DNA from: Obrimoposthia wandeli
Taxonomy: Eukaryota
NCBI GenBank assembly: GCA_977020255.1
Contig: CDROCS010001717.1
Coordinates: 248,001-312,000, forward strand
Reading direction: 5' to 3'
Length of the DNA stretch: 64,000 bases
Positions 5,619 to 62,127 of the stretch are shown one piece after another. The first letter of the stretch is position 1. Every line of letters starts with the position of its first letter. The position numbers and the translations under genes were made by a program. The notes beneath the pieces are model-generated. The model did not search any database, was not told the origin of the DNA, and worked only from the letters and a program-made list of their open reading frames with translations.

Positions 5619-5923
5619 CAGAGGTTTCCAAACTTTGTTAGACGCGGAACCCTTTGGTATTATTTAAAATATATTGGAACCCCTACCTATTTAAAAATAC
5701 TTCAAACTATTAAGTAAAGAATAAAACTTATTTATATTGAAAATTGAAAAAATATTTAAGTTAAACTAATGAAGTATTTGTTAAGTAGTTATAGTGAGCA
5801 GAGGCGAGTAATGTTTATGCCAATTTTTTGTAAATTTATGTTTTATTAAATTTCGGCTCGCAGAGCCTCTGACTTTGTTTACGGAACCATAGAGTTTCGC
5901 GGAACCAATTTTGGAAACCCCTG
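5619..5923. mobile_element. hAT-type (Charlie-like) MITE
   Basis: Ends CAGAGGTTTCCAAA ... TTTGGAAACCCCTG with subterminal CGCGGAACC motifs. The 8-bp flanks TGATAGAT/TATTAGTT match only 5/8. Confidence 0.75.
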
Positions 5924-6780
5924 TATTAGTTGAATTTCCTTATGCTGAACAGGATTCTGATCGAACTGAAGTTGGATTTTATGAACACACTGTATTGAAG
6001 TTAATGAATGTTTAAGAAAGTTGTATAATTGTTAGATTAACAAAATTGAAAATATGATAAATAATAATAAACTCGATGAATATATTAACGAATGAGAGTC
6101 AAATGATGTTTCTAGAACATTCTTATTTAAATAATCAATAGAATATTCTAATTAAATTTGTTTTACTGCATCAATGAATTAATTAAGTCATTAAAGTGTT
6201 AATTGATTTATTTTTAACAAGATTTCATAAAATGGAAAATCAACAAGAAATCAAATTAATTTTAGGTGATGACTCGCCCTCACTTAAGAGGAAAGTGATT
6301 CTTCTGGAATCTCGGATGCTTTGGGAAAAGCTGGAGGTAGAAGAAATCCCAGGATTCGTTAGTTTCAATCCAGGGAATGTTCCAGTCTTTGTATCCGCAC
6401 CGAAGTGGACTTAATGTATTGCTATCACATAGCAAATGAGAATGAACCCTGGCACTCTTCAGGGTCACAATTTTTTATTGTGTCTTGTTTATTATTATTA
6501 TTTTATTATTATTACTTAGATTTCTTTTTAAAAATCTTAACATTATATTTTTGTAGGTATAAAGTGTAAAGTAAGCACAAAGTCTATTCATTTTATAAAT
6601 ATTTAGTTTTCATTTAACCTATTTTACTTAATATTTATCCTATTACTGAAGATCTAAACTATATAAGTTTTAATTGATAGTCTAAAAAAATTAAGACATT
6701 TTTATCACATATTTTGCAAATAGTTGCAAAAAGTTTCATTAGATTTTTCAAATTATAAGCTGTTAATAAATATTTTTTAA

Positions 6781-7545
6781 ATGTTTCTGCATAATATCAA
6801 ATTGGTCAACATAAATTATAAGGGAAAGGTTTAAAGCTCCATCAAGGACTTACCTTTTCGCTAGTAGAAACCTCAACAATATCGTCTCAAGTGTCTAGAT
6901 CAGGGGCGTGCAACATTTTTAGTCGGCGGGCCATATAACATCATTTCAGATATTAAGTGGGCCACACTGAAAATCTAGAATTCATATGCATAATAAATTC
7001 AAAAATTTTACAATATATTTACATTCAGAAAAACATTTATTTAACCTATGTAATAAATCTTGGCAAATCGTTTTAAATTAAAGCGATAAAAAGTAAATGG
7101 CCAAATTTAAAACTGTAAAATTTACCTTACTGTGACGAAACAGATTCAAATCCGGCGGAAGGTAAAAAATAAATTTTGTTAGCGAGGGCCGCACTAACTT
7201 GCATAGAGGGCCACATGTGGCCCGCGGGCCGCTTGTTGTGCACCCCTGGTTTAGATTATAATGGGGTGTAAAAAAGTGTTAGATGAAAGCACTTTACCAT
7301 TTGATATAAAAATCGAAAGAATTCAATCGATTACTGTTAGTGTTGAGTTGGTGCATTAGATAAATCTTAATAAGATGAGAAAAATATTTGAATTGATGCT
7401 TTTTATGAACCAGAAATCTTTCCTGGACTGCGTTGTATTAAGTATAATCCACTTTGTGTAAACAATTTTGCAAGTAAGAAAGTTATGATTTTAGGTTTAA
7501 AGATTTTAGATTTTGTATTTATGGTTGAAGTTATTTTGTATAATA
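6781..7545 (+). pseudogene. TATA-binding-protein-like gene remnant, interrupted by a MITE
   Basis: After removing the MITE, frameshifted frames give IMGCK...IQSITVSVELVHxINLNKM...DAFYEPEIFPGL (7404-7430)...LCVNNFASKKVMILGLK. This is collinear with the TBP core CTGAK...IQNMVGSCD...YEPELFPGL...LIFVSGKVVLTGAK. Confidence 0.7.
6901..7248. mobile_element. hAT-type MITE with 8-bp TSD
   Basis: TIRs CAGGGGCGTGCAAC ... GTTGTGCACCCCTG. Flanks GTCTAGAT/GTTTAGAT match 7/8. Confidence 0.9.
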
Positions 7546-7614
7546 TATCTCTGTTCACTTGTGTTTTTTTTATTCTTGATTTATAAACAAAACTAATTTT
7601 GATCTAAAATAAAA

Positions 7615-8200
7615 ATGAATGATAAAGCGATTAGTGAAGTGGATAAAGATGAACGAAGAGTGAAATTTTTAAATGGATTAGCTTTTATGGAGCCTTTAAT
7701 AGTAAATGCTTCTAGAATGGAAATGATGCATATGACTCATCCTCTTGATAGATGGATTGATTCTAGATATAGTGCTTTTATTAAAGAAAGGTTAGAAAGA
7801 ACAAAAATGAGTGAAATTTTAATAAATCAGCTTTATATTGTTAATTATCGTGATGGGTCTGATAAAACTGGGCTCCTTCAAATGGGGATTTACTCATGTT
7901 ATCAATCATCTCAATTAGATATAATTCAATATAATTCAATATAAAAAGTTAAAATATAAGTTTTCGTTAAAAGGAAAGAAACAATAATGAAATATTTTAA
8001 ACAGACAAATAAAATTATTAAAGAAAATATTCAGAAAGGAGGAAATGTTTTAGTATGTGGTCATTATGGAACACATACTGCTGTGTGAATTGTTATAGCC
8101 TACTTATCTCTTTCTATGTCTGTTAGTACTGCTTTTCATATTGTAAAAACTAAGCCAAGTGTTGCCGTTCCTTCTGAAAATATGTGTACTCAAATTCAAC
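7615..8200 (+). pseudogene. Dual-specificity phosphatase-like (atypical DUSP fold) gene remnant with a non-catalytic active-site motif
   Basis: MSEILINQLYIVNYRDGSDKTGLLQMGI matches the DUSP N-terminal strand. After a frameshift, GGNVLVCGHYGTHTAVxIVIAYLSLSMSVSTAFHIVK matches VLVHCxxGxSRSxTIVIAYLM. Confidence 0.75.
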
Positions 8201-8535
8201 TTTATAATTGTTTCTCAAACATTTAATATATAAATAGAAATATTTTATTCTTATTTCATTTAAATGTATACTCTCAATTATTTTAATAAGTAAGTTGAAG
8301 AAGCAGCTAAAACATTCATTTCCAAAAATGTTATTGAAGATGATGTTATTGATGCTTCGAATCTGGAAGAGCATGTGAGAAGACTCATTCACAAGAAAGC
8401 CGTGGAAAATTTCATCTGGGCATATAATGAAAGGAAGGAGGAGCACATGAATATATTCAGATGCTCAATCTGGGACAATACTATTTTTATGTGTATCAGT
8501 GTTTGTTTATTAATAAATTATTTTATCTTATAAAC

Positions 8536-8865
8536 ATGATTCCTTACCACTCATCTATTTATTATGGAATTGAAAACAACGGTGTTTTTTAAATTGTTGG
8601 ACCAAGTGGAAGTGAGAAAACCCATTTTATTTGTAAATTACTTCAAAATAATAAATATTTTAAATCGAAATTCAATAAGATATATTGGCATCAGGGTGAA
8701 GATGGAGAAGCTGATTTAACTAGTAATGAATTTAAGAAAATTAAAAATATTAAAGTCATTAAAGGATTTGATGATAATTGGTCTGATAGATTACAGCGTC
8801 ATGATGTTATTGTTATTGATGATTTGTATCAGGAAGCCAATAAAGAGAGTGATTTCAACAATCTA
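8536..8865 (+). pseudogene. Polinton/adintovirus-type A32/FtsK-like packaging ATPase, truncated
   Basis: Walker A-like IVGPSGSEKT (8599) and Walker B VIVIDDLY. Homologous to the minus-strand copy at 32960-33430. Confidence 0.75.
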
Positions 8866-9149
8866 ATCAAAACAGAAAAACATTTCACATCATAAAAAAC
8901 GAAGTTTTTTTTACATATAATTTGGAATATAATCATATTAGAGTCTTTATTTATCATTTGATGCCAAATTAATTATCGTGTAGTGTTATTAGATAATATA
9001 AACAAATGTGTTTGTTCTTATTGTAATGATGCGATTTGACCTTAGTGGATATGTCAATCATATATCGCTGACTCATTGAGGGATAGGGGGTACTGTGCCG
9101 GAATCCACACATCTACCTACTACTGTCTGTTTTCTAAATTCTATCTCAG

Positions 9150-30200: not shown

Positions 30201-31899
30201 ATTCCTATTTAAACATAAACTTTGCTTTATTGCGTTCTATTTATGTTATCAATGTGTGATGTAGCTTCCTATATTCTGCCAATATGCCTATTCACCTGTT
30301 CCTTGATACTCAATGTCGTTTCATAAGAAAAATTATTTGCTTCAGAAATTAAAGATTTTCCTTCTGTTTTTTTATTTGATTGTTTTCCTTCTCGCTGTCT
30401 GTCTTTAACGGATGTTGTGTCTTTAAATCGAGTAAATGTATCTCTTCTTTGACTTGGTGCATATTTTTATTTCTCATATTGAAGTTTTCTTCTCTCAAGA
30501 GTCACTTGATTTTATTTCTGTCATAAGTAAAACTAATGTAATTCTCTCATAAATTAATAACATTTGTAAACCCACGTTTATAAAAATTCCGGATTTTTCT
30601 CAAAGTAAGAAATTAAAACCTTTTTTATTTTGATTAAATTTCAATAAATTGTCTTTCATTTGATATGTTGAACAAAATATTTTATAAATTTAATATTCGT
30701 TGGGACTGAATTAAGAAGATACTTACTGATAACGATGTACAGATAAATTGTTTTAAATTATTAATTTTCTATCTATTTAGAGTTATTCATATTAAGAATT
30801 GTTTGGTGACTTACAATGCATTCTGCATAAATACAAATTTTAATTTTTAAACAGCAGTCTTTCCATTTCCAGACATTCATGCGACGACGAAATTAGAAGG
30901 GGCTTCTTTCAGTACCACCTGGAAAACTGCAACGGATTTTGTTGACTCCTTCTTCCAGAAAGTTAATCAAGAAAGTTACTACATCTTCTCAGTCACTGTT
31001 GACAGCATCACATCTTCCCTGACGGTAGTGATTTTCCAAAATTATACAATAATATACAAATAACGCTATAAAACCAAATCTTATTAAATAAAGCCTAGTT
31101 GTTGTTTTATGCACTTTGAAGTGCTTATGCGTGTGTATCTGTGTGTGGATGTCTGGCTATATATTAACCATACATAGTGTTAGATTAATACGAGGTTAAA
31201 TTTCAGTGTGATTTTGATGTTGTTCTTTGTGATAATAAAGTGAAGTTCGGTATTGTAGTCAGAATTTTTACAGTAGATTTGAAGAAATAAATTTGTAATG
31301 AACAATAAAGAAGATGAGAATTTATGTATAATATTCTTAGCGTTTATTTAAATTAATTGCTACTTGATTTTCTATAAAATTGTTTAATTTTTTCATGATA
31401 TATCTATATGGTTTATTTTTCAGCACCATAACATGCCTTACAATCTGTTACCTTGAATTTAATACACTCATTTTATATTTTTCATATTAATTCAGTTAGT
31501 GATATTTACTATCCTAGCCATCTTTAGATTGCATTAATTAACTTATAATATAATCAATTATTAATTAATTCAAAGACATAATTATCAAACCGTACAATAA
31601 CTAAATTTATCCAGCAGCTACGTTACTGACTGTTGACAGAGGAATTCGTAGAACTGTTAAACTGTTTACTTGGAATCCAATAATTGTAGCTATATTTATT
31701 TATTTTATATGCGGTCTCAATTTAAATTCAATTTTCTTATTTTTACATAGAAACTTTCAAATATATTATCAATAGTTTCCATGAAATATTGACAAAGACT
31801 TTCAACATTGGAAAATAAGCAATCATATCATAATGTATATTGCTCGTGTACGTTCACTTGAATAGCTTGATACATTTTTATTTTTAAAATCGATAATTC

Positions 31900-32340
31900 A
31901 TATATTTTATTAATTAATTCCGATTCATAAACCTATTTTCAATAGCAGCTTCTTTCAATCCATAACTAAATGATGAACTTTTATTTTCAGTTAATTTAAA
32001 ATCATGTTCTTTAACGTGAGTTACATGTATTTTCTTTTCGTCATTAAGGTATCATATTTATATTTTGGAGTGATGTACCCGACGGAAAATAATCCATGTT
32101 TCATTTTCAACTACCTTAAACTTCATATTTTATTGTTTTCTCCTTAATATAATCAATTATTGATTCCGTTTTAATGGATCAAAGAGAATAATCAAATTAA
32201 AATTCTGTCAGAACAGCTTCTCAAGTCCCATGTAAATTTATTGTAGTTTGATAATCAATACTAAATTGACTTGCTGTATTATCTGGTTGAGTTAATGGAG
32301 AGCCATTACTTGGTCAAACACAAAACATTGAATTCATTTT
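31900..32340 (-). pseudogene. Polinton/adintovirus minor capsid (penton)-like gene remnant
   Basis: MNSMFCVxPSNGSPLTQPDNTASQFSIDYQTTINLHGTxEAVLTEF resembles the conserved FYLTLPSNSS..FPDNT.S.F...L...I.L.G.WEVAL.EI N-terminus. Confidence 0.6.
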
Positions 32341-32399
32341 ATCTGAGAAGCTAATATCCAACTAGGCTCACTGTATTAATTCCATTTAACCAGATAATG

Positions 32400-32950
32400 T
32401 TTATGCTTTCCCGATTCTTTGTTTCTAAGATTTCTTGTATTTTGACCACTTTAGACTTTGTAATTCTTTTATACTTGTAATTATTCATGATACATTTACC
32501 ACCAATTTAATTATTTGATTAATTATCCATAAAGTACATTACCGGAGCAGGTTTGGTATCGATTTTAGTGATACGAAACACTTCATCAATCCAATTCTCT
32601 TGAGTTTTCTCTTTATAAAGGAAGTAGTACTAATTTGTAAAATTCACATATAATCTCCAATTTTGTATTTTGGTTTATTTACAACTTGATACTGATTACG
32701 ACATTGCCATATTTCCATAGCATTTTCATCAGAAGTGTATATTGGTCTCTTTCTCTTCAATTATAAGTGCTCACTGTGATTATAGGGATGAATTATATTA
32801 GGTAAAACAGAAACCCAAGACTTATTCCCGACATTACTGAAAGCATTTTTATAATATTTCTGTCAACATCTGATTAAATCTCTCAACTATCGCAGTTTTA
32901 TATTGAGTAAATGCATAATAATGATTATGTAATAATTCTTCAATAATATA
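32400..32950 (-). pseudogene. Polinton-type retroviral-like integrase, C-terminal remnant
   Basis: KTAIVERFNQMLTE, WVSVLPNIIHPYNHSEH, KPKYKIGDY, NWIDEVFRITKI. Confidence 0.8.
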
Positions 32951-32959
32951 CTAACATGT

Positions 32960-33430
32960 CTATTATTCGGGTAAGCTTGCTTTGAAACAAAATCAACTAC
33001 TGTCTGATCATGAGAATTCTTGAATAAAACAAAGTAATGTACATTCAAATTACGAGTTCTCAGATTTCTTCCCAGATGAAATAGGTTTTGCGTAATGAAA
33101 ATAACTGTTACCTCACGATTTCGTGATATTTTAGGAAATAAATGATTAAAATCATTCTCTTTATTGGCTTCCTCATATAAATCATCAATAAAAATAACGT
33201 TATGATATCGTAATCGATCAGCTCAATTATCATCAAATCCTTAATGACTTAATATTTTTAATTTTCTTAAACTCAATACTAGTTAAACCAGCTTCCACAT
33301 CTCCACCCTGATACCAATATTACTTATTGAATTTAAATTAAAAATATTTTTTATTTTGAGGTAATTTACAAATAAAAGGGATTTTCCTCAATACAATTTG
33401 AAAGACGACATTGTTTTTAAACTCCATGAA
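32960..33430 (-). pseudogene. Polinton packaging ATPase remnant (second copy)
   Basis: VIFIDDLYEEANKENDFNHLFPKISRNREVTVIFITQNLFHLGRNLRTRNLNVHYFVLFKN. Collinear at DNA level with 8560-8865. Confidence 0.8.
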
Positions 33431-33699
33431 AAATTTGAGGTAGAGAACTTTCAACAAGCTATATGCAAAACTCAACTAGTAGAAGCAAGACTATATATAT
33501 GAGTGTTTAGGGATAATGTTTATAAGATAAAGTTATTTGAAATAATTTATTACTAAATAAGCACATATACACATAAAAAGAGTTTTTTTCATATTGAGCA
33601 TCTGAATATCTTCGTGTGCTTCTGTTTCCTATGATTATAGGCCCAAATAAGTTTTTCCACGGCTTTGTTACGAATAAGTCTTTTCATATGCTCCTAAAG

Positions 33700-33905
33700 C
33701 AGCGGTTCCCAACTTGTCTGGTGCGGTGACCCCTTGATAACATTTCCCAAGTTGCGGTGACCCCAAGGATAAAATAATTTTATCAACACAAGGACATTTG
33801 GTATCATAAAACAACTTTTTAAAAGGCCTTGCTGCCTTAGGCGACTCCAGGTAAATTGTCAGGCGACCCCAGTTTGGGTCGCGACCCACAGGTTGGGAAC
33901 CGCTG
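33700..33905. mobile_element. hAT-type MITE (206 bp) with perfect 8-bp TSD
   Basis: TIRs CAGCGGTTCCCAAC ... GTTGGGAACCGCTG. TCCTAAAG on both flanks (33692-99 and 33906-13). Confidence 0.95.
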
Positions 33906-33913
33906 TCCTAAAG

Positions 33914-34300
33914 GGTTAGATACGATTCGATGTGTCGATGAGCTTCATAACATCTTCTTCAATAACATTTTTAGAAAAAAATATCTTTACTGCTTCTTCA
34001 ATTTACTTTTTAAAATAATTGGGAGTATACATCAAAATAAAATAAGAATAAAATATTTCTGTATATATATTAATTAATTGAAAAACTATTAAAAATACGA
34101 ATATGAGTACACATATTTTCAGAGGAAGTAGCAATACTACGATTAGCTTTAACAAGATAAGAAGGAGTAATAACGGGCATAGAAGAATAACTTACTGCAG
34201 TAAATGTTCCATGATGCCCACATTACTAAAACATTTCTTATTTTTTAAATATTTTCTTTAATAATATTTTTCATAAAATTACGCAATTTTTTAAATTTCT
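33914..34300 (-). pseudogene. Second copy of the DUSP-like gene region of the old Polinton
   Basis: Inverted homolog of 8010-8330. The motif reads NVLV(C)GHHGTFTAV. Confidence 0.6.
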
Positions 34301-37699: not shown

Positions 37700-38850
37700 G
37701 AGGAAATTTTCAGATTATATACTATTTAATCTATTTTTAAACCACTTTGCAAATTAACACTATAAACAATATCAAGATAGAGCAAGCACATATATAGGTC
37801 TGGTAGTATTTATATGGATTATAATAGAAATGATCAGAGAGAAAATATTAATCCATTACTGAAACAATAACAAGACCTATACGAGAAACCGAAGAACGTA
37901 AACTCTTTAAGGATATGGCTAATACTAAACGATTTTCATAAACAACATTATTAACCAATTAGAAACAAGCTTCAAAGGATAAACAATTGAATATCCGAAT
38001 TTAGAAAAGCTATACCAACCTATGCACAAATATCACGGATATGATATGCATTTTTTAAAGACATCTCACAACTATAATTTTATTTTTCCTGTCAACATAG
38101 AGACGCTTAGATTTTATTTTCAGTTATTAAATTTGACTTATTAAATTCAGTTATTAAATTAAAGACAGGATCAATATTCTCTTCAAACAATTCCAGATCA
38201 AATATGAGCTTCAGGAAAACAAATTCATAATCAAAGGACAAAAAGCCACTTTCAAGCAGGAGCATGGATCAATATTCGATGGACCTCCACCAAGAAATCA
38301 GAATTCAAGGATAAAAGATCGGGCCTTCTGGATTGATAACACTTATATGGAAAATAATTGAGGCAGTTAAAGTTGGCTAATGCAATTTAATATGTATATC
38401 TTTATTTGCTTCTTCTTTATAAACAATAGTAATAATTTAATAATACTTTATAAGAAAATGAGTGAAAAAGCTATTACTAAATCATTAAAGACTAAAAAAT
38501 GAAGAGTGGGAGTGTTTCTTTTATATTAGGGAATCTTTTAAGTAGATGGTTTGGTGGAGTTAATACGAATGCTCTAAAATTGAAAAATAATATGGATTTT
38601 ATTGCAAGTATACAAAATGGGAATATCATACTTGATATTTTTGTAAGATTACATAAAGCATTCAATGCAAGTGAAAAGAATCCTAGTGCATATCTTGGTA
38701 CAAAATTTTTCGCTAAACGATCCAAAGACCCAAATTTAAAAACATTTAATTCAATTTTGCTATTTATAAATTTGATAAAGTTTAGTAAATTATATACAAA
38801 TTATTTTGATGAGTATTTAAATGAAATTAGAAATGAATTTTTTACCAGTA
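37700..38850 (+). mobile_element. Decayed non-LTR retrotransposon (LINE) ORF2 remnant
   Basis: RWFGGVNTNALKLKNNMDFIASIQNGNIILDIFVRLHKAFN resembles the RT Q.GFR...IFLDLSKAFD region. AYLGTK resembles KYLG. Confidence 0.45.
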
Positions 38851-43270: not shown

Positions 43271-43457
43271 GTTATGTAATCAGAAACCAGAATATCCCAC
43301 CGAGAATATTCGTTTATAAATATCCTGTATACGTGAATAAATATTTTGTTTGTACAATCTGACTCTTTTGAATTATGTATGCGATGGAAAACATATATGT
43401 ATATATTTATTTACAAAAGCTACTTTTACTATATTATACAAATATTTCCCCACACAG

Positions 43458-44504
43458 AATGACTCCAAGCGACTGGTGGTGCCAATTATCACAACCAATA
43501 TCAACACCGAGAGCAGCGTCAACATGCAGTTTATGCTCTCACAGCTCAATCTCAACATCACTGAAGTTAACGTAAATGTCAAGAATATTGAGGTCGAATT
43601 CGCTGCACAGCTTAGAAAATTGACGCAGGAAAAGACCAATGTGCTCAAACTAGCCAATTCTGTCAACAATGTTCGTGCCGTTTGGCTCTACATTAACAGA
43701 ACCGTATTTCCATGGAAGAACGATTTCTCCCAACTCAATATTCAGGTTGCCTCGACAACGAGCTTCATTGGTGCTTCCTTTGTTGTCGTCTCGACGTTGC
43801 TGATTCTCGTACCCACTATGTATTTCGTGGCGGTTTACTCTCTTGTGTTATATTGCATCTCATACCGGTTCTACTTGGAGTACCTCATCTCCCAGTCGAG
43901 CGCCACTGCCAATTTGTCACAGGCGCCCTTCATGTCAGTGCTGGACAACTATAAATCCAAACAGAGCCTCGTCAAATTCCGACATAAAACCAACTATCGT
44001 GCCGGTGGCTTCTATGTCTACTTCATCGTCGCCTCCATCCTAATCTTCTTTATTGCCCTAATCTCCATTATCTGTTACACCACTGGATTTCTCGTCTACA
44101 ACGAAGTCTGTGTTCAATTGAACTCCATCGAAGGCCAACTGCAAATGGATTCTATCATCAACACCTTCTTTCAACGCTACTGGAAACTACTAACATCATC
44201 ACTAGACATCTCCAAGAGTCCTGTTGAGTTGATCTTCAGCCAGCCCTCCAACATTCTGTTGAAGATCAAGTCCAACTGCACAGGCACAAACGGGCTACTC
44301 TATGCAGCCGAGATTAACAACATCATCAATATCTCATCTTTCGTATGGAGTCCCGAGAATATGGCAGTGCTACGAAATGGCCTCAGGGGAACTTACAATG
44401 CAATTATCGATATCAACATCATTGACATTATCCCATCGAATATCTTAGAGCTTTTAGTTACCGCCAAAAATATCACGGAATACTTTGACAAGATCAACTA
44501 TCAA
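43458..44504 (+). CDS. Prominin-like gene, exon D (end of loop 1, TM3, TM4, second extracellular loop)
   Basis: Acceptor CCCCACACAG|AAT (phase 0), 349 open codons, two TM segments, GFLVYNEVCVQL and SNCTGTNGLLY motifs as in prominins, donor CAA|GTGAGT (phase 0). Confidence 0.8.
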
Positions 44505-45656
44505 GTGAGTCTCAAAATTGCTAAATAAACCAGTATAAACTCGACAAATAATAATAATAAAAAATAACAACAACAATGATGTATTTAATATAGTACTTTT
44601 ATCTGATCAACCTGGATTTTATTACTCAAAACATCTTTGTGTTTTTCAAGGTAGGTATTATCTTGCATAAAGTTTCTAAATAGTAAAATATTTCGATGCT
44701 CTTTGATACACTTTCTTATTATGTAAATTATTACAAATATTCGGAGTTAAATTTCAAATATTCCATCACTCTGATTGTTATTTTAAAATTATAAATCTGC
44801 AACCACCATCGTTGTACCTAAGATTCATATACATTTAATAATAAGGCATTTATTGGCATCCAATGGAGCTTCATTGAATGTTCACTTGAACAAGTTTTTT
44901 TCTCTACCTCAAATATAATATTCACGGTTTTGTTAAAATGGTTTTAAACTATTTTATTGATAAACTGGAATAATGAACAGCAAGGAATTATGAAAATCAA
45001 GTCTCGATGTAATAGTATATTATTTTAAATCTTGAATATGACAAAGTATGTTTAAAAACAATGTATAAATCCTTGTCGTCCATAGTTTTGCAGAATGGGC
45101 AGATGTAATACACCCGCCCACAAGACTTTGACCGATAGTAGGCGGACATTATCTTCATGCAGGAATCTCCTGCATTTTGGAGCCGAAGCAGCACAATACA
45201 CTAAAAACAGGTTACAAGTTATGTGAAATAATAAAGATTAATAAAGATTAAAAAAATATAGGTTATTATCATATTAATTATTTCAAAAATTGGGGATATA
45301 ATGAAAATATTTACTGTTATTGAATTTATTCCTTCAATGAGAAGAATTGTTTATCTGTTATTGGTTGATAATATTAAATTTTATATTTTTTATTTCTTCA
45401 ATTAAAAGAATTGTTTATTTGTATGTAAGGTCATTTATCATTGGTTGAAATTGTTAATTTTTTATATATTGTATTTCTCCAATTAGAAGTATTGTTTATC
45501 TACATGTTAAGTAATATAAAGATAGACTTAAACACTTTTTAAATGCCCAATGTTCACCATGATCGCAATATGGATAGCAAATATTTCGTGGAATTTTTAA
45601 TAGATAATCAAGTTAAGTATTTCAATCCTAATTTTTGCAAATATTTTTTTAATGTC

Positions 45657-48598
45657 AGTAGGTGGATGGGTCCGGTCTAATCCACCCTCTGAGGTGCTAC
45701 CACTGTCCTTTAAAACACTGCATGTGTGTGGAGTGAAATTTCGTGCATGTGTGTGTCCATTCCTTCCGAACTGGGGGGGTCCCTAATTTTTTTTATTTTA
45801 CTTTGAAATTTACCGCTAATCTTAAAAGTGATTAGAGAAGACCACGGGAATCCATATTTGTCCCGGTGGCTTATCGCAGATGAGATTTCAAATAATATGT
45901 GAATATAAACTAACATTTTTACATTCTAAAAAGAAAGAGTCAGTGTCCCCAGCTGCAATTTTGATCTCACAATTGAATTCTTGCCGATATTTCTCTAATT
46001 CTATATATTGAAGCTCGTACATTCTGAGTTTAGAAATGTCTAAAACCGTTTGACCTATATAACTCGGTCAATCGGGACAAATACTCTGTTTTCCTAATAA
46101 CACTGCTACCAAGTCATCTGCAATTGTAAAACTACGCTTGAAGTTGTACTTGCTAGTATATATTATTAGTTTACGCTCACCATTGCTAAACCGTAGAAGA
46201 ATACGTTTCCGCAAGTTCTCTACAGTTTTTCTAAAGATACTATTACTTTTTAACTTGTAAAAATCCCGATCGAATTTGCTAGTGGCCAAATTACGTTTTC
46301 TAGAATTCTTCTTAATTTAGTCTTTAAACACAAAGTTTTGACTGAAGCTTATAGCACAATGAATTCGAGTGACTTTCGCTTCCAACTTTAAGTAGAATTG
46401 AAGAAGCCGCCAATGCACAACATAATTCAACTTGTCTTCATGGGTTAACAATAATTTCTTAACCTTTGAATTAGGTGGGCATTGATGAACAGGCGCTACT
46501 GGAAGATCATCTAATTTATCATGCACATTGGGAGGGATTTTTAAGTCAACCTCAACCAAATAGCCGATGTCTGATGAAACTGTATCAACAGTAGCCAAAT
46601 CTGTCACCAACTTATTCAACTCTTCCTCATCATAAACCCACTTAAAGTTGGCATGAAGAAGAGATTGAATAAGTGCCCACCCATACAAATTATTAATGTC
46701 GATGTACAGAATCTCGGTGGATTGATTTTTGACAACATGATGTTTGTTGACAAAAGTCATTCCACCGCGTATACCATAATCATACATTTGATACATCACG
46801 GGATCTTGCAGTAACTCGATATAAATATTAAGAGTTTTTATTGCTGTTGCCCATGAAAGACCAGGTAAACTATAAAAATGCATGGGATCTAGTTCATCTT
46901 CTGCTAAAGAATTTTCACGAAAGGACTCAAAAACATCAGCTAAAAGATAAATGTTTAACTTCATATAATAAAACATATAATCTAGAATATTTCGAAAATT
47001 ATTCTCCCAAAATGTACGGGCCTCATTATAGTCTTGAAGACAAATTCAGTTATGGGTGGGATTTCTGTAGTATTTTCTAAATCTGCAAAGGTTTTCGCAA
47101 ATTTATACGGAAAAATCCCCTTATCATTAACCAAAGCTGGGAACACTGACTGTGTGATTGGCCATGCATTTAAAGATGCCGTTAAATTTTTTAAAGACCC
47201 ACTCAAAAACTGCAGAGAATCTATGAATCTTAAACTACAGAATTCAGTATATGCAGTTAAAGATAAATATTTCTCTGAAGTTTGAGGTATACAAGAAATT
47301 TCCCAAGAACCTTATGTACCCAACGCGTAGTTAAGTATATGAGGCAAATCATATTCTTTGAGATTATGAAACACGATGGGAATGCGTCTAATGATCATTG
47401 CATGATGAACATTAAGATCATACTACGGTTTGACAATTGTAGTTCCTAATTCTTCTAATTTTAACATAAAATCTAAAATCACATTAAATTAAATGATATA
47501 TTTTTATTTATCAAATGAGAGTTTAATAAATCGAAGAGATTGGATCTCCTTGCTGCTTCTGCCAAAGTTGCTGGACGAGTGGCTTCTGTGTTCTGCCGGG
47601 AAGTACAGTCTTCCCAATTCTCAATCGAATCCTGACTAGTCATTTCGATATATTGGGATCTCTGTACCCCACCTCTCACGTCCATTGGTTCTTCTCTTGG
47701 AGTTGAGTTGACCAATGGCGATTCTTCTAGTAACAGCTTCGTTATTACTGATGATTCTCTTTCGTCTTCTTCGCTCACAACCGACGAGTCTTGACTAAGT
47801 AAGTCAATGTACTGCACCGGTGGTGGCGTTCACTGCTGTACTGGAGAGAGATCCCCATACAGTTGAACCTCCATCTCTTCGTCTAGGTCAACGTTGTTGA
47901 AAATAGGCATTCTTGATTCTTGATTTTGATTTATGAAAAATAATGAAAAGAGGTCTCCTTATATATATAAAACAACAGACTCTTTTGTCGTCCAATGAGA
48001 GCGGGTTATTCAAATAATTTATTTGAAAAATCCATAAACTTTTCTCACTTTTTTAACGACGTTTGAATGCGAGAATGTTATTGGATAAAAAAAACTTTTA
48101 TTCAAATATAGTACTATTTTCTTAAGTTTTTGTTGACTAAGTTCAATATCCAATGAGAACGTATTATTCAAATAATTTATTTGAAAATTTATAGAATTTT
48201 CTTAATTTTTCGATGATGATTGAATACATGTATATCTTTGCATTTAAAATGGTAATATTTTCTTGACTGTACACATTTGAAGGGTATAATGTAATAAAAA
48301 GTAGCCTTTTGAGTGTATCTGGATATAAATACTTATAAGGAAAGTTTTTTCGCGACCCTGTATATATATGTATTGCTCGTCAGGCCAAAGCGGGCCTGAA
48401 GGGCACGCGTTGGCTCTTAGATGGCCCCTCAGGCATATCCTAACTAATATTTTAAAGGGTGTTAAATGGGGTTAATTAGTTTTTTAGGGTAATTTTGTAG
48501 GAAATTTCACTCCACACACATGTACGGTTTTAAAGGACAATGGTAGCTTCCCCGGGGGAGGGGGAGGTGGTGGATTAGACCGGACAAATCCATCTATT
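45657..48598 (-). mobile_element. 2.9-kb deletion-derivative Polinton (copy A) with TIRs and 6-bp TSD
   Basis: Left end AGTAGGTGGATGGG, right end (reverse complement) AATAGATGGATTTG, about 90-bp imperfect TIRs, AATGTC at 45651-56 and 48599-604. Contains the ORF1 5' part and pPolB pieces. Confidence 0.9.
45900..47450 (-). pseudogene. Protein-primed DNA polymerase B fragments (palm domain)
   Basis: LLADVFESFR, GIRGGMTFV, ILYIDINNLYGWAL, GYLVEVDL, FYKLKSNSIF, YIGQTVLDISK, AGDTDSFF (about 45935-45955). Confidence 0.9.
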
Positions 48599-50459
48599 AA
48601 TGTCTTATATTTTTTGTCATCATCTAAAACATAAAAAATTCCACTTTCAATATAAAAATTAGATTTAATTGTATTGATAATACATAATTATCAAAAAGGC
48701 TTATTTCCTTCTTTCCATTTTAATAAATAAAAATATTTAGGGAGATATAAATTAATAATTTTATTATTATAATCTCAAGTCCTAAACGGGATATCAACAT
48801 AAAATATGAAATGCAAAGAATGAAAAATGTCACATATATCCATAATACATAATTATTTTTATAATATAATCTGTATGTTTGTTAATGGAAGCCTCAAAGT
48901 CAATGATATAATCTTGCATAAATACCCAAATATGTTGCAAATTCCTTTATAAAGAATTTAAATAGAAACTAATAATCAAAATTTATTAAAATATCAAAGT
49001 ACTCCGTATTCATTTTTTCTGTTAAGATTGCTACATATTTTCAATTCTCTTATGAATATTAAAATAAATTATATAAAATGTAATCCTAGCTAATAATATT
49101 GAAAGTAAGTGCATATTTTATCTGCAACAATTTATGGAGTATCGTTTTTTGAGAAATAATTTTTTCGTAATCTACCATTAAATTTGGAGATAATTTAATG
49201 TATAATTTATTCAATTTTATTTTATCATCCATCTTATAAAACAATATATATAAAATTGTTTATATTAAGTATGGTTATGTAAAATATTTAGTCGATAATA
49301 TTAATTATATTTATATATATTTATTGATTAACTTTATGTAATTGATATGATATTTGAATCATTGATTTATTTTACACGGAATTTAGAGATATTTAATGTA
49401 TTTGATATTGGATTTGATTAATTATCATGGATTTATTAGATATGTAGAATATTTGATTTGGTTTATCTGGGATTATGTTTAATTTACATGGATTTAACAG
49501 ATATAAAAATGAATGGAGCTATGGATTTCAATATATTTACAAGTTCTCATTTATGTTTAGTAGGGTTCACATGGGTTGTCATTGATTTTCATAAGTATTT
49601 TCATTGACTTTACTGAGATTGCATTTAATTACATAGGTGATTTTAAATTAGCTATATATTGGGATATAAGATTATATTACCAGTTATGTAATTATATATA
49701 TTATTATAATTTACTCTCATACATACATATACGTATAATGATATATCGATTCTTGATGTAATCTGTGTAACTCTGTGAATTCAACCTGTGTATTCCACCA
49801 ACTTGCAAAATTTTGCAAATACTTGCAACAACCAATCAAAACACAGACATCTTCACATACGTTCATGTTTTGTTCTAATATATACATTCACAAATATATC
49901 GACTCTCCTTGTACTTTTCAACCAATTTTCTGTAATTTTTGAAAGAGCTTCCACAAATCCCATCAAATATTAATTATTGAGCATAGAGAACATTGAGCTT
50001 ATAAAAAATGTTTTTCTTAGAATTTGGAATAATAAAATTTTAAATAATCTTATTTATTTAAAATAAAACATCTTATAAGTAAGAATAATTTTTTTTTAAA
50101 AGAAAAATTACATGGTAAATCTATGTTTGTTTTACTGTGTTATTTTTAACAAAGAAAATGAAATACAAACAATCAATTGATATAAACAGGCCAATTTCTA
50201 TAAACAAACGAATTATTAGTGTTTAAACTATTACAAAATTACTAATGTAAGCAGTTTATTTTTGATATTATTTTACTAATTATATTTTTAGTGCAATATT
50301 ACAAAAATGTATGTTTTAATCAATACCATTTGATTTGCAAATCAAAGATGCAACGATATTTTGAAACAAAGTTCTTTGGACGTATTTTCTATATGTTTCC
50401 AATGTGAACCGACTGATGATCAGCCTTTTTCATTCATCAAGCTCATTTCGGAAATTATT

Positions 50460-53400
50460 ATAGTCTTCATTATAGTCTTGAAGACTTACACCCTCAAATT
50501 CAGTTATGGGTGGGATTTCAGTTGTATTTTCTAAATCTGCAAAGGTTTTCGCAAATTTATACGGAAAAATCCCCTTATCGTTAACCGAAACTGGGAACAC
50601 TGACTGTGTGATTGGCCATGCATTTAAAGATGCCGTTAAAATTTTTAAAGACCCGCTCAAAAACTGCAGAGAATCTATGAATCTTAAACTGCAGAATTCA
50701 GTATATGCAGTTAAAGATAAATATTTCTCTGAAGTTTGAGGTATACATGAAATTTTCCAAGAGCTTAATTTACCCAACGCGTATTTAAGTATATGATGCA
50801 AATCATATCCTTTGAGATTATGAAACACGATGGGAATGCATGGTTTTTTAGGGAGACGACGGCCAAGGTTACAGAGGTTGCACGCCGCTCCCAAGTATCG
50901 CCCCGTAACATGATCGTGATCTCTGACTAACTTAGACTGGGTTCCACACAAATAACATAATCTACAAGAATTAAAATCAACCCAGTCTATGCCTATCATG
51001 ATCATTGCTTGATGAGCATTGAGATCATACCACGGTTTGACAATTGTTGTTCCTAATTCTTCTAATTTCAACATAAAATCTAAAATACAATTTGGACCGG
51101 AACATTTATGATACTGTGTTATATTGGGGCCTAGGAATAGTAGTCCTGCTGAAGCCGGTAGGTGAATACTCTCATACTGGTCGTGCAATGCTAGAATTGA
51201 CTCAAAATCAGCATACACCCTGAATTCCACGGGTATGCATTTTGCCCAATCCCTGAATTTTAAATCCTTAACCTTAGGCATGCTATATAGCGTATTGTCA
51301 TCAGGATTCAGTGAACATAATGTCAGATGTTTGCTGTAAGAGAGCTCGGATCGGAACCCATGCAAACATCTATGACACCACTTACACCTTATCCTAACCG
51401 GTAAGGCTCCATTATCTAAATTTAGAAGACGATCTAAATTAGGAATTGCAGCATAATGAAATTTTTATTATGTTCGAGCAAAATTAAGTTGACCTGAGTC
51501 CCCTCATTTTTGCTCCTATAAATTACATCTACAAAAGGATTTTTAAAAATTTCTTCATCTGTTACATTAACTGGGATATCAGTATTATATTTGAATACAT
51601 TAATACTCAAATTATTAAGGTGTTCAAATCTTGATATCGCAGTTAATTTAACAGGAAAATCTATTCCATGATACTGCAATTCATTTAAAAAAGGGGCATA
51701 TTTACTGACACGCTCTCTATGCTCAGTAATTACATCCCTTTTGAGGATGGGCAAAACGCTATACAGGAAGCAAAGGTTATCACTGTTTTGTACGTTAACA
51801 ATGGAACGTGAAAGTTGAAGAGATCTAGGTGAAGGAATGTATGAACTCCCCGATAAATATAGCATGTCAGTGAACTTTGTACGAACAAAGCTAACATCGT
51901 GAATTCTAACTAGATTCCATCCACTATTTAACTCGCAATAATTAGCAATTTTTTCATCTAGGTTTCTTCCAATTTTAGTTACAAAATTATCATAGAAAAC
52001 AGTTGCTTATGGGAAATTACCCAAGTTTTAGTCTCCTCATTGACATTTTTAAACTGCACTGTTGCGCGAAATTTAACCTTAGCCAGTCCTAATTTAGTCA
52101 CTTCTGATTTTAAAAGATTTTCAATATTTGAATCTACACCTACGTTTAATAAAATTTCATTTCCTAATGGCACCTTAACTATAACATACTTATTATTTAG
52201 GTGATACTCTATAGTAGCACCGTTTTCTCTACGTTTTTTGGGTGGGACCTTATTAAGAAATTGGCCTCGCCTCTTTCTTCCAACAGTCGCTGACTAACCT
52301 CGCCCTAATTGAACGGGAAGACAACTAGTTATATTAAATGTCGATGTTGAGGCAATCACAGCTGATGTGGAAGGGGCTACTGTAGTAGATGCTGCCGATG
52401 CTGAGGCAATCGTAGCTGTAGTAGACGGTGCTTCCGCAAATGATGAGTCAGAAGCAGCTGCATTTGAAGTTGGAGTAGCTGAGGTAGTCGCTGGCATTGC
52501 CGATGAAGAAGCGGCTGTTGTAGAGGCTGATGCTGCTGAAATAAATATATTAAAAAATAAATATATTTTTTAAAATTATTACCTCTAAGGCGTGCTAACA
52601 TCGATGTAGGCACTCGCGATGGAGGAGGCATAGATGTCGTAGCAGACGACGGCTGTATGAAGGTAGTCGCTGGCATTGCCGATGAAGAAGCGGCTGTTGT
52701 AGAGGCTGATCCTGCTGAAATAAATATATTTTTTAAAATTATTACCTCTAAGGCGTGCTAACATCGATGTAGGCACTCGCGATGGAGGAGGCATAGATGT
52801 CGTAGCAGACGACGGCTGTATGAAGGTAGTCGCTGGCATTGCCGATGAAGAAGCGGCTGTTGTAGAGGCTGATGCTGCTGAAATAAATATATTAAAAAAT
52901 AAATATATTTTTTAAAATTATTACCTCTAAGGCGTGCTAACATCGATGTAGGCACTCACGATGGAGGAGGCATAGATGTCGTAGCAGACGACGGCTGTAT
53001 GAAGGTAGTCGCTGGCATTGCCGATGAAGAAGCGGCTGTTGTAGATGTTGATGCTGCTGAAATAAATATATTAAAAAATAAAAAAAATATTTTTAAAACT
53101 TATTACCTCTAAGACGTTCAAACATCGATGTAGGCACTCGCGATGGAGGAGGCATATATGTCGTAGCGGACGACGGCTGTATCACTGTATTTCCTGAATA
53201 AAAAATAAAAATAAATAATATATATTTACAATTTAAAAAAATAATCAGTAAAATAATAATAAAAAAACCTAATGAAGGCAAACCAACAGGAGCTGATTGG
53301 AAGTCCTTTTCATTGACGGAATCCATCCAGCTGTCGTTCGTGAACTCGACGAAATCGGATTCCTCGATGGTCTCCAACCAGCTGTTGTCGCTCCACTGAG

Positions 53401-53880: not shown

Positions 53881-54988
53881 CTTAATCTGAAATAATAAAT
53901 ATTAATAAAAAAATAATAAATATAGATTCTTAAAAAATTGAATTTATTCCTCCACTGAAAAAAATTGTTTATGTGTTATTGGTTGATAATATTATTTTTA
54001 ATATTTTTTATTCCTCCAATTAAAAGGCTTATTTGTAATTGGATGAAAAATTGATTTTTTAAATAATGAATTTTTCCAATTAGAAGAATTGTTTATCTAC
54101 ATGTCAAATAATAATAAGATAGACTTAAACATTTTTTATATGCGCAATGGTCACCATGACTACGATATGGACAGCAAATATTTCGTGGAATTTTTAATAG
54201 ATGATCACGTGAAATATTTTAAGTATTCAACCTCAATTTAAGAAAATAATTTTTTAAAGTCTTATACTTTTTACCATCCATTTCATCTAAAACATAAAAA
54301 ATTCCATTTTCTATATCGAAATTAGATGTTATTGTATCGAAAATACATATTTCACAAAAAGCCTTATGTCCTTCTTTCCATTTTAATAAATGAAAGTAAT
54401 TAGTTAGATATAAATTAGTAAATTTTTTTTTATTATTTTAAACTTTTAAATGGGAAATCTATTTGAAACATGAAATGCAAATGATGAAAAACTACAAAAA
54501 AAAACAAACATCCATAATACATAATTCTTTTATAATATAATCACCATTTTGTTAACGAAAGCCTCAAAATCTATGATATATTCCTGCATAATTATCCAAA
54601 TTTGTAGCAAATCCCTTTGTTTATAACGAATAAAAAAATCATTAATCAAAAATTTATTAAAATAACAAAGTACTCAGCATTCAGTCTTTCATGTTAAGAT
54701 TGGTATATATTGTCAAATCTCCTATGAATATTAAAATAAATTATATTAAATGTAAACATACCTAAATATTTCGAAATTAAATTACATATTTTATCTTCAA
54801 CAATTTCCGGAGTATCATTTTCTGAGAAGTAATTTTTTTATAATCTTCCATTAAATCTGGAGATAATTTTATGTATAATTTATTCCAATTTTTTTTATCC
54901 ATTTTACAAAAAACATTATATATAAATTTGTTTATATTTAGACAATTATTTAACATAATCAATAAAGACAAATTAATAATCAAAACAT

Positions 54989-61229: not shown

Positions 61230-61869
61230 TTTTAATTCCATATTCATAGTTTTAACCCATTTAGCCAAAATAAATGGTCCCAGTTTTGTCGGAGACTCAT
61301 TCCCTAGATTTACCCTGATAATGTCTATTGTCGTAAATATTTTTGCTTCATCCACATAATTGAACAAGAGTTGTGCATCCGGTATTTGGAATGTCTGAAA
61401 ATTGTCTGTAGTCAACACACATTCGAAATGTATTGTCTGGCTTCTTCACAATGACCAATGGCGAGTTCCAAGGACTTTCAAAACGCTTAATTACGCTTAC
61501 TTTCAGTAAACTTCCAATCATTTCATCAACTTGATTTTCTAAATGCATTGATTGTTGTCTAGATTTTGACAAATTGGATCCGCAATAATCCATTGAACAA
61601 CACTTTAATATTAAACCCACACAAAAGTTGTTGATGACTACTCAAAAAAACTCCACTCACATATAAATTATTCTTTCTCATTTTGTGATATCCTCCTGTT
61701 TCCCAACAATCCTTACTCATTACAGTAACTGGTGCTCCAGATTCCCACAGCATTTCAACATCTACATCATGTATCCTTATTATACTCCATTTGCAACCAT
61801 CATTCTTCAAATACTGAGTAAAATTCCTACCTTATCAGTATTATTTCATAACATGCATTATATTATAAA
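61230..61869 (-). mobile_element. Gypsy protease/RT remnant
   Basis: VEMLWESGAPVTVMS (protease) and PWNSPLVIVKKPDNTFRMCVDYRQ (RT). Confidence 0.7.
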
Positions 61870-62127
61870 AGTAGGTGGATGTGTCCGGTCTAATCCACAC
61901 CCCCCTCCCCCCTTGTCCTTTAAAACCGTGCATGTGTGTGGAGTGAAATTTCACTCCACACACCTACACGAAATTTCACTCCACACACATGCACGGTTTT
62001 AAAGGACAAGGGGGGAGGGGGGTGTGGATTAGACCGGACACATCCACCTACTTTTATAATATAATGCATGTTATGAAATAATACTGATAAGGTAGGAATT
62101 TTACTCAGTATTTGAAGAATGATGGTT
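61795..62127. repeat. Perfect inverted repeat (158-bp arms, 17-nt spacer) including a Polinton terminus and 75 bp of flank
   Basis: 61795-61952 is the exact reverse complement of 61970-62127. AGTAGGTGG terminus at 61870. Internal 30-bp palindrome GTGTGTGGAGTGAAATTTCACTCCACACAC. Confidence 0.95.

Follow-up and report, generated by a model that had tools for sequence, protein, structure and literature searches.

A TBP-like gene in one clade of integrase-bearing Polintons and a candidate promoter box upstream of their virion genes

Introduction

The window analysed here, a stretch of 64,000 nucleotides from the 1.35-Gb genome of the animal Obrimoposthia wandeli (contig C1717, positions 248001-312000), holds a broken TBP-like gene directly before genes of Polinton type. 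This raises the question whether the TBP-like gene belongs to the element or to the host and, if to the element, what it would do there. The answer bears on how the capsid genes of integrated Polintons are switched on and whether any outside help is needed for it.

Polintons/Mavericks and adintoviruses share pPolB, an integrase, an A32-type ATPase, a double jelly-roll capsid protein, a penton-like protein and a protease, as well as TIRs and a 6-bp duplication (excerpts of PMC8502044). In the excerpts of this paper (Starrett et al. 2021), the label 'TBP' occurs once in the main text, in the MELD-virus legend of Fig. 5, and the animal adintovirus maps of Fig. S2 show no TBP label. Unlike the elements described below, these excerpts present no clade-wide distribution of TBP, no reduced lobe and no promoter box.

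The broken gene and its neighbours

The TBP-like gene is preceded by the TATA-like sequence TATAAGC (6754..6760, plus strand), which is neither canonical TATAWAWR nor YATAAACR and is typical of the window subfamily. A 5' piece with a reduced N-lobe (6781..6900, +) contains stops at 6832, 6862 and 6865. The 3' piece (7255..7571, +) encodes the C-lobe with YEPEIFPGL and contains a stop at 7357 and a frameshift near 7380. Between them lies a MITE with CAGGGG termini (6901..7248), presumably hAT-like, flanked by an 8-bp target duplication (6893-6900 and 7249-7256). As the first-pass annotation had implied, it is an insertion into the gene: it is missing from the 10 closest paralogs alignable across the site, the eleventh having no 5' side. 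Right after the MITE, about 73 nt present in paralogs are deleted. With a MITE inside it, a deletion next to the MITE, a frameshift and four stops, the gene is a real remnant, but dead.

A profile of element TBPs matched the window at about 6784-6900 (E 2e-4), 7252-7392 (E 1e-12) and 7389-7571 (E 6.5e-19), the last match including YEPEIFPGL. Searched alone against Pfam, the three pieces gave no TBP match; a natural intact copy of 144 aa (L014) matches Pfam TBP (PF00352, E 1.3e-17). The first-pass annotation had seen both TBP-like repeats at this place on the plus strand, immediately before a DUSP-like gene and the packaging ATPase. The placing agrees with the profile matches and with a Pfam DSPc match downstream. 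The C-lobe repeat stands as well, but the first repeat amounts to a reduced lobe whose conserved Phe has gone with the deletion.

The DUSP-like gene (7615..8223, +; DSPc, E 1.1e-8) is broken and has a YATAAACR box about 32 nt before its ATG (7582..7589, +). The catalytic loop of the window gene and its paralogs reads C-G-H-Y-G-T-H and lacks the Arg of the CX5R motif, so that the protein may be a pseudophosphatase. DUSP-like genes were found in 23 of 40 genome loci. A second YATAAACR box (8529..8536, +) stands about 34 nt before the ATG of a truncated, broken A32-type packaging ATPase gene (8564..8883, +), 64% identical to an intact A32-type ATPase. The termini of the remnant were not found, and neither integrase nor pPolB lies within its 6.8-8.9 kb, both being present in other elements of the family.

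A decayed insertion of the same family at 31658..34271 (-) contains the DUSP end, the ATPase, the integrase and the start of the penton gene, with a YATAAACR box before the latter. It is a separate insertion, 78-87% alike, in which no TBP piece was detected. The earlier statement that this inverted copy ties the DUSP-like and ATPase genes to integrase and penton was correct (31.7-34.3 kb).

Copies in the genome and linkage to Polinton genes

A Pfam TBP search of the genome yielded 19,768 first-look candidates; the 150 that were scored comprised 10 host genes and 140 sequences at 48-54 bits. For linkage we sampled 40 further copies, 20 from this search and 20 from a search for the closest paralogs. 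A Polinton core gene was located within 5 kb of all 40 and the packaging ATPase within 5 kb of 38. The control consisted of 19 stretches of 10 kb (L183-L201), picked by hand at round coordinates, and 10 of these stretches lie on known long contigs. Some core gene was present in 14 of these, the ATPase in 4 and a TBP-like gene in 6. Since so many control stretches hold a core gene, linkage to any core gene is uninformative and only linkage to the ATPase counts (Fisher p 1e-8). By this measure the other copies are linked to Polinton genes, in line with the linkage supposed at first. The six TBP-like genes in 190 kb of control sequence correspond to about 43,000 copies in the genome (95% interval 16,000-93,000). 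Polintons are altogether extremely abundant in this genome and belong to several families.

Among 11 regions checked for TIRs, one bounded element was obtained, on contig C2687. It has 533-nt TIRs starting with AGTAGT, a 6-bp target duplication and genes for pPolB, protease, MCP, penton, integrase, ATPase, DUSP and TBP, the TBP being sister to the window subfamily (100/98). Elements of the family match PF03175 (pPolB), rve (integrase) and Pox_A32 (packaging ATPase). Their MCP is nearest to double jelly-roll clusters and gave no PDB sequence match. Peptidase_C5 was detected in the element contig L063. A search of the own genome for the adenovirus protease family gave no match, nor any for the controls, but tblastn found protease homologs in own-genome elements. 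The gene that we take to be the penton is so named from its position and motifs and has no Pfam match. A conserved ORF of 120-160 aa adjoins the TBP gene in 34 of 40 loci (e.g. L014:1806-2237, L116:201-599 and window 37986-38368). It has no Pfam match either, and we call it SSB-like by resemblance only; in one family CCAAT and TATA are found upstream of it. Two element families (L025:640-1452, L027) carry a gene with a BIR (inhibitor of apoptosis) domain.

With the intact L014 copy as query, 43 of 50 candidates were relatives, and 136 representatives reached E 1e-10 or better, canonical TBPs among them. A metagenome scan confirmed 133 stretches, 80 of which were kept, and many outside contigs contain relatives with 50-60% identity. 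Nothing was found in IMG/VR when an animal TBP, an ATPase alignment or an MCP alignment served as query. Of 39 outside loci of at least 3 kb (38 metagenomic and one on a giant-virus-like contig), 29 contain a core gene, usually in the order TBP, ATPase, integrase, penton, MCP. Within one clade of integrase-bearing Polintons, the TBP-like gene is part of the regular gene set. The first idea of a TBP carried by an integrating virus is supported, but this is no one-off capture.

Protein fold and DNA-facing residues

The AlphaFold model of the natural intact copy (mean pLDDT 94.5) is a TBP saddle with the full set of strands. It aligned with human TBP over both lobes (VIA-align, Z 13.6, rmsd 2.5 over 144 residues), and in a Foldseek search of the PDB every match listed at E 0.001 or better was a TBP. 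Viral TBPs came at the top of the BFVD structure matches. By Pfam match and two-lobed saddle the protein belongs to the TBP family, as the first-pass annotation had supposed. The first lobe of the 144-aa model, however, has neither H1 nor H2, which canonical TBP has, and no helix besides one turn. Because relatives of 165-180 aa retain the H1/H2 stretches by alignment, this loss is probably secondary and occurred in the branch that includes this genome.

Residues were counted over 34 element rows, with yeast numbers assigned by offset in agreement with Table 1 of PMC12529657. The phenylalanines F190 (34/34), F207 (34/34) and F116 (30/30) are kept, as is P191, but F99 is missing in all 30 rows covering the position. 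The element proteins therefore have three of the four intercalating phenylalanines of a canonical TBP. Nor is the TATA-reading face hydrophobic as in canonical TBP, owing to seven near-fixed replacements: V71N (26/30), V122R (33/34), T124M (34/34), N159S (31/34), V161T (31/34), I194R (26/34) and L205N (34/34). Positions 71, 122, 124, 159, 161 and 205 are DNA contacts, and the herpesvirus protein ORF24 is polar at most of them (excerpts of PMC12529657). Replacements at 194, 203 and 205 give TBP a different specificity (excerpts of PMC1636458). The two glutamates of the C-lobe stirrup, which bind TFIIB (excerpts of PMC7221094), are retained by sequence (E186 33/34, E188 34/34). Helix 2 of the N-lobe, lost here, binds TFIIA, Mot1, TAF1 and Brf (same excerpts).

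A box before virion genes

Upstream sequences were compared in 40 of the 80 metagenome contigs (at least 2.5 kb, 5 near-copies dropped), using the interval 15-70 nt before the ATG. The motif ATAAAC, first noticed by eye, occurred in 69 of 101 virion-type upstream intervals against 4.8 expected from shuffles, and in none on the reverse strand. Its context is YATAAACR, and 51 of 91 sites form a peak 30-44 nt before the ATG. In the metagenome contigs the box preceded ATPase (17/22), MCP (6/10), penton (8/13), core-like (13/15), exonuclease-like (13/19), PLA2-like (10/12), integrase (5/14) and protease (1/4) genes, and was rare before pPolB (1/6), SSB-like (1/12) and TBP genes (2/39). The own genome, the copies of which are not independent, gave the same picture (ATPase 41/46, MCP 22/24, penton 31/32, TBP 0/41). 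In the TIR-bounded C2687 element boxes are found along the ATPase-to-capsid block, on the coding strand. The box is biased in position, strand and gene class. As it is found before non-virion genes as well (DUSP, BIR, exonuclease-like, PLA2-like), 'late' is used here as a label by gene class and does not refer to timing.

Taken with the residue pattern, these data suggest that the viral TBP-like protein is a late-promoter factor that reads YATAAACR before virion genes and works with host TFIIB and RNA polymerase II; we put the probability of this reading at about 0.65. The N-lobe of TBP contacts the 3' half of the TATA box (excerpts of PMC1636458). It is in its 3' half that the new box departs from TATA, which would match the N-lobe, where the protein has changed most. 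A wider proposal, to which we give slightly better than an even chance, is that transcription in this Polinton clade proceeds in two steps and relies on a single minimal, orthogonal TBP and a core-promoter box of the clade's own, with TFIIB and Pol II from the host. In the first step, host TBP would transcribe the viral TBP-like gene from a TATA box of largely ordinary type. In the second, the viral protein would use its re-tuned DNA face to bind the variant box, in which position 7 is C and position 1 is T or C, and host TFIIB would dock onto the protein's conserved stirrup glutamates. By losing H1 and H2, the proteins of this branch may have escaped the host regulators that attach to these helices. 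The early host-TATA step is only partly supported, because canonical TATAWAWR is found before 9 of the 39 TBP genes outside this genome and in 33 of the 70 own upstream matches, and the window subfamily has TATAAGC. The 70 own upstream matches, a few of them spurious, further comprise 20 with TATAAGC or similar and 17 with neither, the box being found in none.

Alternatively it might be that the box is a weak TATA variant or an initiator read by host TBP, a host paralog or another factor, the viral protein acting e.g. as a decoy for TFIIB. YATAAACR is one or two changes away from TATAWAWR, the host possesses four or more genes of the TBP family, including two divergent ones, and the TFIIB glutamates, the best-kept surface of the protein, would be needed by a decoy too. 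However, one-base variants nearer to canonical TATA are not enriched: 82 of 183 YATAAACR sites precede an ORF, compared to 0-12% for one-base variants and anagrams. Moreover, the box is rare or missing before the TBP gene itself and nearly absent where no TBP gene was seen. In 17 integrase-bearing Polinton-like IMG/VR contigs without a TBP match, which are partial and partly redundant, it preceded 1 of 163 ORFs compared to 82 of 318 in the TBP-bearing contigs, a contrast that is essentially one clade against others and hence no case of independent co-evolution. A decoy would also leave unexplained a DNA face that is fixed to new residues instead of decayed. We consider this alternative improbable, though it deserves attention. 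The first-pass annotation had left the choice between a basal factor and a decoy; the promoter-like box and the residue pattern favour the former, with the decoy as the weaker reading.

Very unlikely, in our view, is a forkhead-type site for some factor, of the host or the element, that has no relation to the TBP-like protein. The forkhead consensus is RYAAAYA, which ATAAACA fits; this is the commonest form of the box, and 76 of its 212 sites stand before an ORF. Nevertheless GTAAACA, the main forkhead form (3/51), ATAAATA (12/178) and the reverse orientation (3/215) are at background, ATAAACG is enriched (15/45), and the position of the box is narrow.

There is equally little reason to regard the box as the polyadenylation signal of the upstream gene or as a by-product of conserved codons. 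In its favour, the genes follow one another closely in head-to-tail order, 16 of the 82 sites coincide in part with a stop, and YKQ or HKQ is encoded at some. Against this, 27 of the 82 sites fall within the coding region of the preceding gene, where two reading frames are represented, 39 sites are non-coding, AATAAA is not enriched (20/659), and the distance to the next ATG is narrow. For the late-promoter reading, factor, box and residues can each be named, so that a single small protein and a single reporter would be enough to test it.

Origin of the gene and an intron-like insert

The phylogenetic tree (85 rows, 174 columns, LG+G4, midpoint root; one plant row badly trimmed) places all 34 element rows and 4 unlabelled rows in one clade (100/99). 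The two main host TBPs sit with animal TBPs, and 10 IMG/VR TBP rows lie outside the element clade. Forcing the own element rows together with the two main host TBPs was rejected (AU p 1.65e-5) in this tree, which has long branches and no TRF2/TLF row. The comparison with host TBP called for at the outset thus separates the two. Between lineages dN/dS was 0.08-0.37 in 8 pairs, 2 further pairs being saturated and undefined; 5 near-identical own-genome pairs with few changes gave 0.27-1.10. These values support purifying selection on the element gene, which together with ATPase linkage and the separate clade bears out the view of an integrating virus with a TBP of its own.

That the gene derives from host TBP, as a processed pseudogene or by recent capture, might come to mind because the host has several TBP paralogs with two intronless copies. 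This reading is refuted at the level tested in this tree and has next to no probability given the separate clade, the 50-60% identical relatives outside and an intron-like insert.

This insert is AT-rich, about 37 nt long and located at the Gly of F-K-S-G in all 11 closest paralogs fetched (92-93% identical), most of which have GT..AG ends; the 37-nt insert lies in phase 1 of the Gly codon. By a strict pattern, 33 of 71 loci have an insert of 36-44 nt, 9 have none and 29 were unscored. The outside contig L077 shows a 40-nt insert at the same site. The first-pass annotation had described the gene as free of introns, which fails for the family, as most paralogs hold the insert and the window copy has lost it. 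We infer that the 36-44 nt GT..AG insert is spliced as an intron; two introns of host TBP measure 47 and 48 nt. Four runs of one sample, which are DNA-like, cover the insert, and none of the 15 joints listed, out of 33, spans it.

The host has two head-to-head TBP genes, TBP-family loci being L001/L002 (C238), L003/L006 (C968) and L004/L005 (C60, C1092), and also two divergent TBP paralog types, one of them intronless and without close database relatives. The best animal matches of host TBP are lophotrochozoan and flatworm proteins. A search for TRF2-type relatives with a divergent host paralog as query gave none at 1e-10.

Comparison with other TBPs

With cellular TBP and its paralogs the element protein shares the two-lobed saddle, the YEPE stirrup and F116, F190 and F207, but it is only about 24% identical to cellular TBP and differs by the loss of F99, the seven fixed DNA-facing changes and, in the branch including this genome, the loss of the N-lobe helices.

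KSHV ORF24 likewise combines a TBP fold and a polar DNA face with a TATA-variant box on late genes and host RNA polymerase II, and the late promoters of beta- and gammaherpesviruses are TATTWAA (excerpts of PMC12529657). However, ORF24 is a multi-domain protein of 752 aa that needs five viral partners and has all four phenylalanines but no TFIIB glutamates (same excerpts). The Polinton protein is a bare, single-domain saddle of 144-180 aa with three phenylalanines and intact glutamates. The analogy is also partial because the TFIIB residues are missing from most viral TBPs (excerpts of PMC7221094) and ORF24 apparently makes no direct use of TFIIB (excerpts of PMC12529657). We would liken the two in their working only; their origins are likely independent.

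The TBPs of Nucleocytoviricota and mirusviruses are similar in being viral TBP folds that lost N-lobe regulator sites, but they usually come with a viral TFIIB and have variable glutamates (excerpts of PMC7221094). No TFIIB match was found by Pfam in the 73 ORFs scanned out of 114 on 10 element contigs.

Among titles and abstracts, with subscription papers mostly outside the search, no Polinton TBP clade and no YATAAACR box was described. If the two-step programme is real, it would show how Polintons express their virion genes without a helper virus. It would also provide a natural TBP of 144 residues with changed specificity, and an independent and the smallest case of the herpesvirus/poxvirus strategy of a re-tuned TBP for late genes.

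Further features of the window

Decayed pPolB and exonuclease-like pieces at 45870-51988 (-), 48613-48858 and 54102-54536 (-) belong to other Polinton copies. More MITE-like insertions with CAG-type termini are located at 33492-33950 and 5619-5923, and retrotransposon-like remnants with strong GC skew at 11-14.8 kb and 24-27.7 kb (-). A 395-aa open frame at 43341-44528 (+) contains hydrophobic stretches and has no Pfam match. The region 61795-62127 is a perfect 158-nt inverted repeat with a 17-nt spacer, which could be an assembly artefact.
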